From the IMG/VR virus record IMGVR_UViG_2917413769_000001, positions 1 through 42,056 of that record: a DNA stretch of 42,056 nt; one strand, given 5' to 3'. Under the pieces are notes generated by a model. It was not told the DNA's origin. It saw nothing but the letters and a program-made list of their open reading frames with translations, and did no database searches. A program made the position numbers and the translations under genes. Origin of the DNA: a virus. Lineage: Duplodnaviria > Heunggongvirae > Uroviricota > Caudoviricetes. Below, piece by piece: positions 25,869 through 41,756 of the stretch (within the stretch, counting starts at the first letter, position 1; each line of letters starts with the position of its first letter).

Positions 25869-25945
25869 TGGTCCGCCACCGGGGGCTCGAACCCCGTACA
25901 ATCAAATTAAAAGGCTGATGCTCTGTCCTGGTGAGCTAGTGGCGG
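25869..25945 (-). tRNA. tRNA-like element (possible phage tRNA or pseudo-tRNA; anticodon UUU if functional)
   Basis: Reverse complement folds as a cloverleaf: 7-bp acceptor CCGCCAC/GTGGCGG, D-stem GCTC/GAGC with GG loop, T-arm CGGGG-TTCGAGC-CCCCG, encoded CCA; anticodon stem weak (3 WC + 1 GU + 1 mismatch). Confidence 0.35.
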
Positions 25946-26598: not shown

Positions 26599-27411
26599 CT
26601 ATCGTGTGACAGACTTCAATGCAGCATCAGCATGAGACTCTTCTACATGGCACTGGCTTACCAGAAGCTCAAACAGCGGCTTAAAGTTGCGTGACCATGT
26701 CGGTTGGCTTATTGTCATCACGCCTTCACACAACGCCTTGCGCACGCTCTCTGCCGGAAGCCTGGCATAACCACGGCCTGAGCATTTCCCGCATTCCTTC
26801 ATCACCGGCACGCCCTGAAGTTCCGTCGCCTTCTTATCCAGCACCTTCCCCTTACCATGACAACGACACGCATTGCTGATAACACCTTTGCCGTTACAGG
26901 TATTGCACATAACCCGCGCGGTTTCCCGTACCGACTTCCATTCTTCCCAGTAAGATGGATAAACCCCATTCGTGATTGCGGCCCATTTTGGTGGCTTACC
27001 GTCTGGATATTGAACCTTGTTTGTGAAGACATCAGCTTCGGTGAAGCCGCTACCAGCGCAGCAATCGCACTGCCTGACACTTGCCGCACTGCGCGTATAA
27101 TCCTGATACGCAAAAGCGCACATAATTTCGAGAACGCGTCGGCGAATTGTTTCATCGAGTTCAGTAACTGATTTACAACGTCGTGACAACTCAACTGCTG
27201 ACACATACAGTTCCTCCAATGCCCTGTCAGGGCTGCTGATTCCAATTTTTGCAAGGTACAGATCAAAGCCAAATCCACACCTGGCATTTACCAGCCCCAG
27301 CGCTGCCATTACATCTGTACCGGTCAGGTTATCGGTGGCCGTCGCCCGCGAAGAATCACTGAACATCGGGGACTTTGGAGCAAAATATTTTGCGATTGAT
27401 TCAAGGTTCAT
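26599..27411 (-). CDS. Late-gene antiterminator Q (Cys-rich lambdoid Q family)
   Basis: 270 aa with multiple CxxC motifs (CDCC, CNTCNGKG, CRCHGKG, CGKCSGRG); between nin genes and lysis cassette. Confidence 0.65.
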   Translation of the reverse strand: MNLESIAKYFAPKSPMFSDSSRATATDNLTGTDVMAALGLVNARCGFGFDLYLAKIGISSPDRALEELYVSAVELSRRCKSVTELDETIRRRVLEIMCAFAYQDYTRSAASVRQCDCCAGSGFTEADVFTNKVQYPDGKPPKWAAITNGVYPSYWEEWKSVRETARVMCNTCNGKGVISNACRCHGKGKVLDKKATELQGVPVMKECGKCSGRGYARLPAESVRKALCEGVMTISQPTWSRNFKPLFELLVSQCHVEESHADAALKSVTR

Positions 27412-27548
27412 TACGTGACTCCTGCTTTCTGAATTAAACGAGCGGCGTTACGGATGATGCGATAATCGGTCAGAACTGAGCCAGAAAAGCGGTATAGGCG
27501 CAGTCGCACCCAGTAAGTTTTGAGTGCTGCGGTTATTTCCTTTTTCAT
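27411..27548 (-). CDS. Small conserved nin-region protein (YlcG-like position)
   Basis: 45-aa [24 protein letters not shown]...; ATG overlaps rusA stop (ATGA) and its stop overlaps the Q start. Confidence 0.4.
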
Positions 27549-27907
27549 GCGCTCTCCAGTTCAGTAATAATCAGTTCAGGCTTGCCGCCTTTGAAGACTG
27601 GCATTCTCTTCATGCTGTAGTAATCAACCTGTTGGTCGTCGAGCCAAAACCTGGATTTTGTCAGCGCGTCGAATGCAGCTTTTTGCAGGTTATCCAGGTC
27701 ACGGCGGCGGCTGTCCGGCATGTGGCATTCGACAAGGATTTTCACCGGTGTTGCCAGGCCGATATCCAGCATTGCGTTTTTAATGATTAGGGCGACGTTA
27801 TCGCGGTATGCCAGCCCCTCTGCGCTGATGTGCGTGCGCCCGCGATTATGGCGGTAGTAGCGGTTGTTGCTCGGGGGCCATGGGAGACTGAGGCGATATT
27901 CATTCAT
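27545..27907 (-). CDS. rusA: Holliday junction resolvase RusA
   Basis: Internal start [31 protein letters not shown]...; near-identical motifs to RusA as recalled from E. coli DLP12. Confidence 0.85.
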
Positions 27908-28194
27908 GCTTTTACGATCCCCTCTTTCAGCCAGATAACCTGCGTTCTCGCCATACCTTCCAGCGCGCATTCTTTTGCATACTCAGCATCGACAAAATGT
28001 GTACGGCGGTCGATCTCGTCGTGACAGGCAGAGCATGCAATGGTGGCAATCAGGTCAGGCGGTTTGATTCCGGTGCCACATAACCCGGCCAGGCGAATGT
28101 GCGCCAGTACAGACGTTTCCGGGTTACCGTTGCAGACATTTGGAATTCTTACCTGGCACTCTCTTCCCTTCGCCGCTTTACTTAATTTACTCAT
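27904..28194 (-). CDS. YbcO-like protein (DUF1364-type, Cys-rich)
   Basis: Start [14 protein letters not shown] at 28194; Cys motifs; immediately upstream of rusA as in DLP12-type nin regions. Confidence 0.5.
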
Positions 28195-28451
28195 TGAACA
28201 TGCCCCCACGTTTCACCACGGATGACACAACCAACAGCGCCCCTTCCGATATTTACCCATCGACTAACAGATCTAACTCTGCCGAAATTGCTAACTTCAT
28301 ACAGGCCCTCGAAACCCAGAACAGGCCGCCATCGCTCATTGCTTTCATCAATGTGGCATTCCCGGCCACGCGCAGCTTTTCGAAGATTAGTCATGTTCAC
28401 CCCCAGACCTTTTGTCGGAAGGTTCTCGGCGTCCGTGCCGGACGTCCGCAC
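28191..28451 (-). CDS. Truncated NUMOD4-motif homing-endonuclease-like fragment
   Basis: WRPVLGFEGLYEVSNFGRVRS matches the NUMOD4 signature; preceded by MTNLRKAARGRECHI, which echoes the YbcO N-terminus; no HNH catalytic motif before the stop. Confidence 0.35.
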   Translation of the reverse strand: MRTSGTDAENLPTKGLGVNMTNLRKAARGRECHIDESNERWRPVLGFEGLYEVSNFGRVRSVSRWVNIGRGAVGCVIRGETWGHVQ

Positions 28452-28602
28452 TCCGGCAATTTCACGCTGACCGTCCAGGTAAGGAAATCAGAATTGAGGC
28501 TTTTTTCGGTCCTGATACCGCGCGCCCGATACCGGGCCATCAGTTCGTCAGCCTGCTCGGTTGTGCATTCGGGATGGTGAAAAAAAGAATGTTTCATCTC
28601 CA

Positions 28603-29206
28603 TCACCCTGCAAAGCTCAGCAACTGAGAAGCGGCGTTCTCCGCGTCGCGCTGCGTGGCAAAAGTGCGGGACAATATCCAGCGCCACAGAACATCGAGCG
28701 CGGCTTTATACAGCTGCTGGAACTCGATTTCGTCCATATTTGCGAATGAGATACTGCGGGGATGTTTGCGAAGTGTGCCGTCTGGCAACTGAATGGCGTC
28801 GTAATGCCCGTCCTCGACGATAACCCATGCGCGATAAGCATCGAATGATTTGCAGAGGCTGATCCCGTTCGTTACGCGGCGGTTTGCGACCTGATCCAGA
28901 TACTGTTCAGCAGCATCCAGAAGAGCGCCACCGTTGCCACCATATGCAGCCAGATAACTGGCATAGCCGGTAACCAGCTTGCGCTCATTGCTGGATATTG
29001 CGCCGCCTGTAGGTTCCCAGTATTCGAAACCGAGATTGAGGAGTGCGAAGAAGCGACGGTGAAACGCCGGATTGCGCACTTTTTTTAAACTCAGCCACCA
29101 GTACGTCGCCGAGTTTGATTTTTGATTGCAGAATATCGCTGGTCTCGGGCGTAGCCGGGATCAGTATTCCTGTGTAGTGCTTAATGAGTTGTAGTTCATG
29201 CGCCAT
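28603..29206 (-). pseudogene. nin-region protein (YbcN/DUF1367-like?) split by frameshift at an A7 run
   Basis: Upstream ORF (start 29206) and downstream 158-aa ORF overlap in different frames; removing one A from the run at 29080-29086 joins ...AEFKK to VRNPAFHRRFF... Confidence 0.35.
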
Positions 29207-29269
29207 GGGAGTTACTCCGTGGCGCAAAGTCATCAGGTTCTGGTTGTTCAGACCAGTTGCTTAATTATG

Positions 29270-34899: not shown

Positions 34900-35036
34900 C
34901 GTAAAAACCCGCCGAAGCGGGCCTGTACGTCCGGTGCCACCAACCAAAGTACACCGGAAATTACACAAAACCAATGAACACCCAATGGGCGCTACCAATG
35001 GCCCGGGGATTATACATCCAAAATTGAGGATCTCAT

Positions 35037-40299: not shown

Positions 40300-40624
40300 A
40301 ATGGCAATTCCAGCGAAAAAGGCGGCTGAAATTCTGGATGTTTCAACCAGGACTATTTACCAGTTGATTAACTCAGGGCAGTTGGCCGGTAAGAAGATAG
40401 GCAATAAGTATCGAACAACCGCATCAGCATGCCTTGCATATTTGTATTCCCCGCAAGAAACTAAACAGGCGAACGCGGGTGATCATAAAGGAGATAATTT
40501 ATGTCAATCACCCTCAGAGGCGGTGTGTGGCACTGTCATTTCTTTACGCCGTCAGGAAAAAGAGTTAGACGCTCTCTTGGTACGGGGGACAAAAAGCAAG
40601 CGCAGGAACTGCACGACAAACTGA
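40286..40624 (+). CDS. xis: Excisionase (Xis/AlpA-type HTH)
   Basis: [31 protein letters not shown]; directly upstream of and overlapping integrase. Confidence 0.55.
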
Positions 40625-41664
40625 AGGCAGAGGCGTGGCGGGTAGATAAGATAGGGGATCTTCCGTCCAGATCTTTTGAAGAATGTTGCATCCGCTGGAT
40701 ACGGGAAAAAGAGCACAAGCGTGCTCTTGATGATGACAAAACCAAGATAGAGTTTTTTCTGCAACATTTTTCGGGCAGGGACATTTCGTCTATTACGGCG
40801 AATGATGTATACGGCGTCGTCGAAGGGATGACCAACAGAAAACATTATCAGAACTGGGTTAGCAGCAGGGACGCTGCAATCAGGAAAGGAAAGGAACCAC
40901 CGGAATACAAGCCAAAGCTGGTTAGCCAGGAGACAAGGGCACAGCATCTGTCATTTATGCGGGGTCTTTTCCGTATAGCTGAGAAGGACTGGCTCTGGAT
41001 AAAGGATGCACCTGTTATCAAGGTGAGAAAGCCAGGGAGCAAGCGTATCCGCTGGCTCACTAAAGATGAGGCCTCACGGCTAATCGAATGCGTTTCTGAT
41101 GATTTAAAGCCGGTCGTTACTTTTGCGCTGGCGACAGGACTTCGGCGCTCTAACATTATCAACCTGGAATGGCAGCAGGTCGATATGCAAAGGAAAATTG
41201 CCTGGGTAAATCCAGAGGACGCTAAAGCGGGAAAGGCTATCGGCGTAGCCCTGAATGATACCGCATGCAAAGTGCTTCGCGATCAGATTGGAAAACATTC
41301 CAGGTGGGTTTTTGTCTACACGAAAGCAAAACATCGACCTGATGGAACAATCACCCCCGCAGTCAGGAAAATGAGTCTCGGTAACCATAAAGGATGGGAT
41401 GCGGGTCTGAAGCGAGCCGGAATCGAAAATTTTCGCTTCCACGACCTGCGCCATACCTGGGCAAGCTGGCTGGTTCAGTCCGGTGTCCCGTTATCCATTT
41501 TACAGGAAATGGGTGGATGGGAATCGATTGAAATGGTCCAGAGATATGCGCACCTGGCCCCTAATCATTTAACGGAGCACGCACGGAAAATTGATCTGAT
41601 TTTTGGAAGCAGCGACACAAATACGACACAGGAAATAAGTCAGGCAGGATTGAGGATAGCGTAA
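40501..41664 (+). CDS. int: Tyrosine integrase, P22-like family
   Basis: 387 aa; catalytic-region motifs [14 protein letters not shown] and VQRYAHL; close resemblance to P22 Int as recalled; ends 16 nt from a tRNA gene. Confidence 0.9.
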
Positions 41665-41679
41665 TTCATTGATTTATAA

Positions 41680-41756
41680 TGGCGCGCCCTGCAGGATTCG
41701 AACCTGCGGCCCACGACTTAGAAGGTCGTTGCTCTATCCAACTGAGCTAAGGGCGC
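41680..41756 (-). tRNA. argU: tRNA-Arg (anticodon UCU), argU-type
   Basis: Reverse complement GCGCCCTTAGCTCAGTTGGATAGAGCAACGACCTTCTAAGTCGTGGGCCGCAGGTTCGAATCCTGCAGGGCGCGCCA: 7-bp acceptor, D-loop GG, anticodon loop CUUCUAA, T-loop TTCGAAT, encoded CCA. Confidence 0.9.

Follow-up and report, generated by a model that had tools for sequence, protein, structure and literature searches.

Endonuclease genes comparable to the one considered here have been described in several settings. I-HmuI (PDB 1U3E) is an HNH nicking enzyme encoded in a self-splicing group I intron of the DNA polymerase gene of Bacillus phage SPO1, and the Seg and Mob enzymes of phage T4 and the nucleases of phage ICP1 are free-standing endonucleases that home without an intron and with co-conversion of their flanks. 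In fungal mitochondria, open reading frames (ORFs) known as mORFs are accompanied by a replacement gene end, as in atp6 of Allomyces macrogynus and in atp6, atp9, cox2 and nad3 of Glomus (PMC3630166). An N-terminal duplication has been linked to intron mobility in Tremella (PMC8393795), and in Salmonella phage epsilon34 gene 31 joins the N-terminus of eaE in frame to an HNH endonuclease (PMC2629481). Here we analyse a 42,056-nt stretch of DNA (the window) that constitutes the Caudoviricetes record IMGVR_UViG_2917413769_000001 and is part of contig PDIL01000010.1 in the draft assembly of Escherichia sp. E1130 (GCA_004745435.1). The window contains a lambdoid prophage, and our subject is ORF67, a 67-aa ORF with a Pfam NUMOD4 match (28191-28394). 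It is located between a conserved 68-aa gene and ybcO in the nin region, whose transcription runs on the minus strand.

We consider it highly probable that ORF67 is a recently inactivated copy of an I-HmuI-like homing endonuclease gene, of NUMOD4-HNH-helix-turn-helix (HTH) make-up and specialised on ybcO. By itself, the feature in the window is nothing unusual, a dead selfish gene of a kind already known. The I-HmuI-like endonucleases to which it belongs form a coherent and apparently undescribed family that is associated with ybcO in lambdoid phages of Enterobacterales.

ORF67 and its intact counterparts

An earlier note on this DNA, made from the letters alone, had taken an ORF at 28191-28451 for a truncated NUMOD4 homing-endonuclease remnant beside a duplicated ybcO-like 5' end. 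A minus-strand ORF of 86 aa starting with GTG is indeed present. We prefer the ATG at 28394, which gives the 67-aa form ending at the stop codon at 28191, because this ATG lies 2 nt past the upstream stop, a spacing identical to that between gp51 and ybcO in phage mEp237. The 67-aa form is also the one recorded at NCBI, as a hypothetical protein of Escherichia sp. E1130. NUMOD4 is found in residues 20-46 (PF07463, E=1.7e-11, 44.6 bits against a cutoff of 23.4) and covers profile positions 1-28 of 49 only. The Pfam search returned no HNH or GIY-YIG match for ORF67, which bears out the note's description of a NUMOD4 signature lacking a catalytic core.

An exhaustive HMMER search of 1.84 billion representative proteins identified an intact counterpart, P0018, a protein of 190 aa that is 81% identical to ORF67 (E=2e-32), with the alignment beginning at residue 1. 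Pfam places NUMOD4 at residues 20-74 and HNH_3 at residues 85-125 of P0018, and its residues 21-185 are colinear with I-HmuI (E=3.7e-9). P0018 can be written as MANLRKEARGRECQIDEDNERWRPVIGFEGLYEVSNFGRVRSVSRWVSIG-(123 residues)-RGAVGCVIRGETWGHVK, and ORF67 corresponds to its residues 1-50 plus 174-190. The same picture was obtained at the DNA level for two loci with intact genes, L089 and L091. BLAST aligned nt 13-151 (L089) and nt 1-150 (L091) of ORF67 with the same positions of the intact genes at 80-81% nucleotide identity, and the 3' part of ORF67 with positions far downstream (nt 148-204 with nt 517-573 of L089, 86%; nt 158-204 with nt 527-573 of L091, 83%). The difference between the intact genes and ORF67 is thus an in-frame deletion of 366 nt (122 codons), with P0018 residues 51-173 gone. 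The junction, at 28244-28247, reads ...ATT GGA A/GGT A GG GGA... (the slash marks the join) and is flanked by the short microhomology GG(A/T)A. What was lost comprises the rest of NUMOD4, HNH_3, the helical linker and the first helices, that is most, of the C-terminal HTH. Of the HTH, only the recognition-helix end in the last 17 residues of the protein is left, aligned via P0018 to the C-terminal HTH of I-HmuI; the matches of two family proteins (P0168, from Citrobacter freundii, and P0174) to HTH_3 and HTH_38 were weak.

ORF67 thus reads as a dead endonuclease gene that was internally deleted and kept its original stop codon, and as a remnant of a NUMOD4-HNH member, not an active one. With respect to the earlier note, the proposal that a homing endonuclease was inserted in the nin region and decayed there, leaving a scar beside a second ybcO 5' end, is borne out by intact 190-aa NUMOD4 plus HNH_3 relatives that share both the start and the C-terminus. 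The word 'truncated' does not hold, since the last 17 residues are the authentic C-terminus and the deletion is internal. We had also considered whether the tail of ORF67 (TGGGGGCATGTTCAATGA, ending in WGHVQ and a stop) might be the 3' end of another gp51-like gene. None of the gp51 homologues has such an ending, and in the intact endonucleases this tail forms the conserved C-terminus.

The exact 67-aa protein is confined to this genome and to one assembly from the Sequence Read Archive (SRA; SRR6148301, 99.95% identical) among 5.8 billion protein clusters, and no conserved gene of the same size with a different domain assignment, the finding that the earlier note had named as contradicting it, came to light. 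Likewise, the search of the 1.84 billion representative proteins returned no other protein of the size and make-up of ORF67, and a word-indexed protein search for close relatives of ORF67 returned only the strain's own protein. At the DNA level, a 236-nt block of this locus had no blastn match at E≤1 in 5,426 complete E. coli genomes (ybcO itself is matched in 3,072 of them), and in megablast and blastn searches of E. coli genomes and INPHARED phages the flanks matched and the insert did not. When GTDB species genomes were scanned with the back-translated sequence, the 600 pattern matches were due to chance and no relative was among them. The degenerate DNA pattern of the re-coded ybcO start described below was absent from viral contigs and a shorter form of it from GTDB genomes, and the degenerate pattern WRPVLGFEGLYEVSNFG was absent from viral contigs as well. 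Searching phages by tblastn with the NUMOD4 part returned motif-level matches only (for example mycobacteriophages at 56%), an initial scan of viral contigs returned only unrelated NUMOD4 genes, and in 50,697 deposited phage genomes there was no family relative above 38% identity.

A different reading would keep ORF67 alive, as a functional mini-protein composed of the NUMOD4 strands and the recognition helix of the HTH, which might protect the ybcO site, act as a regulator or serve as a translated coupling spacer. Frame, start, stop and the ATGA overlap with ybcO have all survived a deletion that is exactly in frame, ICP1 endonuclease genes are altered rather than destroyed by in-frame deletions (PMC10448857), and the 53 retained endonuclease codons, with 89-92% protein identity to intact genes, have a dN/dS of 0.04-0.05. 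At a dS of about 1.2, however, this ratio mostly reflects the period in which the gene was intact, and it therefore says nothing on selection acting on the remnant. Furthermore, both DNA-binding modules are incomplete, NUMOD4 ending at profile position 28 and the HTH being represented by its last helix only, and the exact form is restricted to this strain and the near-identical assembly. We regard a functional mini-protein as improbable and favour the decayed endonuclease gene.

Two unequal ybcO starts and a ybcO-linked family

Pfam found no YbcO match for ORF67 at E≤1, and its first 13-14 residues alone are YbcO-like. The start of ORF67 aligns with the first 11-14 codons of mEp237 ybcO in the syntenic position, and compared with mEp237 the window has a 200-nt insertion from about codon 11-14 of ybcO. 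Following the direction of transcription on the minus strand, the locus consists of a native-type ybcO 5' end that supplies the leader and start of ORF67 (28354-28394; codons 1-13 plus CA of codon 14), the N-terminal endonuclease segment (28244-28353; the linker IDESNE and the beta-strand region of NUMOD4, equivalent to P0018 residues 15-50), the C-terminal endonuclease segment beyond the deletion junction (28191-28243; 17 residues and the stop codon, being the recognition-helix end of the HTH), a re-coded ybcO 5' end (28138-28194; the first 57 nt or 19 codons of the functional ybcO) and the remainder of ybcO, which is of the E. coli mEp237 type (27904-28137; 2 mismatches to mEp237 in nt 58-276). 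The stop codon of ORF67 and the ATG of ybcO overlap as ATGA, an arrangement conserved in L089, L091 and a third intact locus, L093, and a GGGGG run lies in the C-terminal segment 8 nt before the ybcO ATG. In short, the anatomy is native ybcO codons 1-14 fused to the endonuclease, the ATGA overlap, and then re-coded codons 1-19 with the rest of ybcO.

This anatomy bears on whether ybcO was formerly interrupted by a group I intron or an intein of which ORF67 would be the remnant, or whether ORF67 might be a product of faulty assembly. Intron-encoded endonucleases, I-HmuI among them, are often in frame with the upstream exon, and the genome is a draft. Behind the endonuclease stop codon, though, ybcO starts from a separate ATG with a full set of N-terminal codons, and therefore no splicing is needed. 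Rfam contained no family, intron or other, that matched the region at E≤1, and none reached its gathering score in the intact loci L089 and L093. On these two grounds, the complete and separately initiated ybcO and the lack of an Rfam match, we rejected an intron or intein origin. An artefact is unlikely because the second assembly (SRR6148301) has the same structure. Together we rate these explanations as extremely improbable.

The P0018 search returned 65 relatives, the majority with both NUMOD4 and HNH_3, and intact members have 174-197 aa. Among the 32 closest cluster representatives, which are 47-86% identical, half (16) have a YbcO-type N-terminus in frame shortly before the conserved ERWRPV motif, with starts such as MADLRKAARGRECQ, MRVVSKKVRESARGQDCTV, MSTLTRLARGRDCQVR, MSWLTDLCCGQPCY and MSAITKSAQGENCT; the remaining closest relatives begin with a short leader of their own. 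The fused leader amounts to about 14-19 codons of native-type ybcO. In all six intact loci whose genomic context was obtained (L089, L091, L093, L094, L095 and L096) the endonuclease gene is followed by a full-length ybcO whose start overlaps the endonuclease stop codon. Further loci were collected by profile-guided scans of metagenome and IMG/VR contigs, and among the high-scoring ones (>185 bits, n=13) the overlapping ybcO is present in 10. The other three (L185, L186 and L187, from IMG/VR, at about nt 1480-2050) are identical to one another and rearranged at the 3' end: they have the fused leader MKVVSKKVRDSARGQDCTVNDQEERW..., their C-terminus is replaced after ...IVRGEA and no ybcO follows, so they appear to be another kind of rearranged or decayed copy of the family. 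Over the 20 loci examined, a full ybcO directly follows the endonuclease in 17, and for about 147 distant NUMOD4-HNH loci ybcO was found nearby in one, in a non-adjacent position.

The 3' end of the intact genes is conserved as ...TGG GGG CAT GTY MAA TGA, so that a run of G's stands 8 nt ahead of the ybcO ATG; its position suggests that ybcO would be translationally coupled to the endonuclease. In three loci (L094, L101 and L102) the endonuclease is free-standing: it has no ybcO leader, and its start codon overlaps the end of the preceding gene as ATGA or GTGA. The N-terminus of L102, MIDESKERWRPV, equals the linker IDESNERWRPV of the window, and in the fused forms the ybcO codons therefore replace merely the initiator codon of the endonuclease.

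Across very different ybcO subtypes, the leader is joined to the endonuclease just after a conserved Cys codon of ybcO, which we take to encode a conserved zinc ligand. Locus L181 (IMG/VR) differs in that its leader is joined before this Cys (MAKINFRKEAKGRE followed by FDEALERW). The genes upstream of the family members are unrelated from locus to locus and include NinF, a 151-aa gene, a 102-aa gene, a Dam methylase and others, with a gp51-like gene in the window.

The two ybcO 5' ends differ in character. In the window they share 27 of 42 nt and hence do not represent a fresh duplication, so that of the 'duplicated start' in the earlier note the likeness to YbcO stands, given the mEp237 alignment, and the duplication in its simple sense does not. 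Neither does the ybcO-like start stem from decay; it belongs to the conserved design of the whole endonuclease family. For E. coli-type loci the mean nucleotide identity to alleles lacking the endonuclease gene is 78% for the leader and 63% for the downstream start, native alleles being 81% identical to each other. The leader has native codons (CGT GGY CGK GAA TGC CA), and the downstream start has AGA, AGG or AAG for CGN, with CGN to AGR at the R-G-R codons, and CCA AAT for CCY GGC. In the window the re-coded start likewise has AGR and AAG codons for CGN, a G19N change and a GC content of 42%. When leader and downstream copy were compared in ten distinct loci, their DNA identity was 53-71%, and 66 of the 108 codon pairs that specify the same amino acid differed; ten of the 42 identical pairs are ATG.

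Comparison with uninterrupted ybcO regions, which the earlier note had proposed as a check, supports an insertion at a fixed site: phages without the endonuclease have ybcO at the same place and no insert. The presence of the element is sporadic, with empty sites in mEp237, E. coli H5 and four viral contigs (L285, L269, L289 and L297). In mEp237 and E. coli H5, gp51 is followed by ybcO with nothing in between, and in seven viral contigs lacking the endonuclease gene a relative of the upstream gene of L093 is directly followed by ybcO. The four contigs just named are those of the seven that were compared in detail. Their native ybcO matches the L093 leader at 52-56 of the first 57 nt and the L093 downstream copy at 38-40 of 57, and over the remaining 246 nt of ybcO L093 is 87-89% identical to them (Fisher p=2e-4 to 5e-4). 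No such 5' dip was seen in pairs of ybcO genes from loci without the endonuclease. The window shows the same step: its ybcO is 61% identical to that of mEp237 in nt 1-57 and 97% in nt 58-291 (99.1% in nt 58-276; Fisher p=1e-11), and its nt 1-60 are 82-83% identical to the ybcO behind the intact endonucleases of L091 and L089. The window ybcO is thus a chimera with a breakpoint 57 nt into the gene, as a short co-conversion tract would leave. As judged from these alignments, the 5' divergence is marked and mostly synonymous in the lineages for which an empty-site comparison exists, and insertion of the family would explain one kind of sharp mosaic boundary within ybcO.

Lambdoid nin regions are, on the other hand, highly mosaic, and illegitimate recombination between two nin regions could have joined a ybcO start to an unrelated endonuclease by chance, with no site-specific homing. 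The flanks of the insert do differ in affinity, the left one being C. koseri-like (87% at the protein level) and the right one mEp237-like (99% at the nucleotide level), and in epsilon34 the N-terminus of a neighbouring gene is fused in frame to an HNH endonuclease and that gene is not restored (PMC2629481). A chance event would nevertheless have to account for the same junction (just before the Cys in L181) recurring with divergent ybcO subtypes and upstream genes, for the recurrence of the overlap with a complete ybcO, and for the L093 leader following the local native ybcO allele almost base for base. With proteins 47-86% identical, moreover, the fused loci are no single recent clone. We consider a chance mosaic very unlikely, and retain the ybcO-specialised homing endonuclease as the explanation for these loci.

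Several points weigh against this reading, however. For all members of the family we infer cleavage, target site and homing. The leaderless L094, L101 and L102 make it clear that the fusion is not obligatory, and the position of the L181 junction means that the junction is not perfectly constant and may indicate independent fusion events, so the fused forms may have had one origin or several. The low dN/dS of the retained codons fits a recent deletion and is equally compatible with a constrained remnant. The nearest intact genes have only about 80% DNA identity to ORF67, the direct intact ancestor and the donor phage being unsampled. Lastly, in L089 the whole of ybcO is equally far from E. coli alleles (65% vs 61%, p=0.65), and therefore re-coding for immunity and a donor allele from a distant lineage cannot be separated in every case.

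The surrounding genes

In the order of nin transcription, all on the minus strand, the first gene is a frameshifted DUF1367 gene (28985-29233 plus 28603-29079), followed by the conserved 68-aa gene (28397-28603), ORF67, ybcO (27904-28194), rusA at its 3' side (27545-27907), ylcG (27411-27548) and a Q-type antiterminator gene (26599-27411). The 68-aa gene belongs to the mEp237 gp51/Gifsy-2 STM1021.1n type (phrog_1212, E=1e-32) and is homologous to both of these proteins in alignments, with Citrobacter koseri proteins 87% identical. Its final codons, TGG GGG TGA, form a Shine-Dalgarno-like run for the next start. An ORF at 28397-28687 that the earlier note had thought of doubtful reality and overlapping the endonuclease remnant thus holds a real conserved gene, which is clear of ORF67 when the latter is taken to begin at 28394. 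The full-length, intact ybcO matches PF07102 (DUF1364) with E=2.3e-41 over profile positions 1-91 of 92, and its product is presumably the His-Me finger nuclease predicted for this family.

The split of the DUF1367 (ybcN-like) gene (28603-29233, minus strand) is due to one extra A in a run of seven at 29083-29089 (...GAG TTT AAA AAA A GTG CGC AAT...); six A's would give EFKKVRNPAFHRR, as in mEp237 and C. koseri. The run has the same length in an independent SRA assembly (L084), so that either a pseudogene or a slippery site appears to be involved, an assembly error not being obvious. At the other end of the locus, the 99% identity between the ybcO of the window and that of mEp237 falls sharply, to 15 of 21, in the final 21 nt, at the overlap of ybcO and rusA (27904-27918), which seems to place another abrupt mosaic boundary where two genes meet.

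The closest gp51-like gene is that of Citrobacter koseri. This species was considered as a carrier of the endonuclease and rejected; it has a different 93-aa gene in the place of ybcO and no endonuclease. In an SRA assembly (ERR13770175; L087, nt 2501-2895) the gp51-like gene is lengthened to 109 aa by an extra G in the run of its WG codons, which removes the stop codon. The DNA downstream contains, in another frame, the 93-aa gene of C. koseri type (MAIYRNRKW...), which stands in for ybcO in that lineage and shows its own CxxC...H...CxxCH pattern.

Elsewhere in the prophage, a tRNA-Lys(UUU) gene (25869-25945, minus strand) is flanked by the Q antiterminator gene on one side and the lysis genes on the other, a position at which Stx-type lambdoid phages have tRNA genes. 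In the early region there is an Rfam match to the isrB Hfq-binding small RNA family (34902-34996, minus strand; 41.7 bits, gathering score 35, E=4e-4). A 387-aa ORF (40501-41664), by its position the presumed integrase gene, ends 16 nt from tRNA-Arg(UCU) (41680-41756), an adjacency which suggests that the prophage is integrated at an argU-type tRNA, as we take DLP12 to be.

A proposed route and its relation to known systems

Homing endonucleases usually target constrained sequence, and a plausible course of events would begin with the enzyme making a nick or cut in native ybcO around codon 14-15, directly behind the codon for the conserved Cys. Repair from a phage that carries the endonuclease would copy in the endonuclease gene together with the re-coded ybcO start. 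The displaced native start would stay upstream and give the endonuclease a ribosome-binding site and an ATG, which it would require, as the linker of the E. coli type contains no Met; the same codons would also act as a left homology arm that is independent of the variable upstream gene. The re-coded start would restore ybcO, would probably be immune to cleavage and would probably be too unlike the leader for the cassette to be lost by recombination between repeats. In the lineage of the window, the recipient of the cassette would have been a ybcO of mEp237 type, the co-converted tract would have ended about 57 nt inside it, and the later 366-nt, microhomology-flanked, in-frame deletion would have removed the catalytic core, leaving a 67-aa ORF that lacks catalytic function and through which the translation of ybcO may still be coupled. 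Such decay is the usual fate of homing endonuclease genes with nothing left to invade. If this is true, the ybcO of this prophage is permanently immunised against the endonuclease family.

Introns and inteins let an endonuclease gene live in a phage gene unharmed, and a more general proposal, about which we are evenly divided, is that the family represents a third way: insertion after the ybcO Cys codon, a native start of about 14 codons that doubles as a portable left arm, and a synonymously re-coded, cleavage-immune and coupled start for the target gene, with the window holding a freshly decayed copy. Literature searches on ybcO/DUF1364 or on homing endonucleases of nin regions found nothing specific, and the start-duplicating, target-embedded architecture appears to be undescribed for phages. 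It would answer how a free-standing endonuclease inside a coding sequence keeps both itself and its host gene expressed, and its host system, lambda-like phages of E. coli and Citrobacter, is open to standard genetics. For annotators, the implication is that small 'hypothetical' ORFs that start like a neighbouring gene can be endonuclease scars.

Among known enzymes, I-HmuI is the one with which the intact relatives are colinear throughout, from the NUMOD4 strands over the HNH domain and the helical linker to the C-terminal HTH. The sequence identity is low, however, the copy in the window is without the catalytic core, and for the ybcO family target and nicking are presumed only. Whereas I-HmuI sits in its intron, the ybcO family is intronless, with the gene placed in the 5' end of the presumed target. 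With the free-standing Seg and Mob endonucleases of T4 and those of ICP1 the family has in common its sporadic presence, its position by the presumed target and a sharp-ended donor flank, which in the window lies at nt 57/58 of ybcO. Nuclease genes of ICP1 also decay frequently in frame, as ORF67 has done (PMC10448857). The T4 and ICP1 genes are intergenic or split their host gene, however, whereas the ybcO family is often fused to the start of its target and then followed by a complete, re-coded start.

In epsilon34, as in the ybcO family, the first codons of a resident lambdoid/P22-like gene are fused to an HNH endonuclease. The next gene there, however, is a homologue of P22 orf45 and no restored eaE, so that the interrupted gene is lost, and epsilon34 gp31, which we had considered as a second case of start duplication, was rejected as such. 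The mitochondrial mORFs resemble the ybcO family in their in-phase insertion, in the foreign and largely synonymous gene end and in the displaced native end (PMC3630166). Indeed, the ybcO loci show the hallmark of that type, an in-frame ORF with a native gene end on one side and a foreign one on the other, the differences between them being mainly synonymous. The mORF enzymes are of the LAGLIDADG or GIY-YIG type, whereas the ybcO family is of the HNH type and its hosts are temperate phages of Enterobacterales. Until now, replacement of a gene end had been described chiefly for fungal mitochondrial genes, at their 3' ends. The ybcO family is the mirror image of the mORFs: there it is the 3' end that is replaced, and here it is the 5' end that is doubled, with the foreign piece joined to the gene body downstream and the native piece kept upstream as a translated leader.

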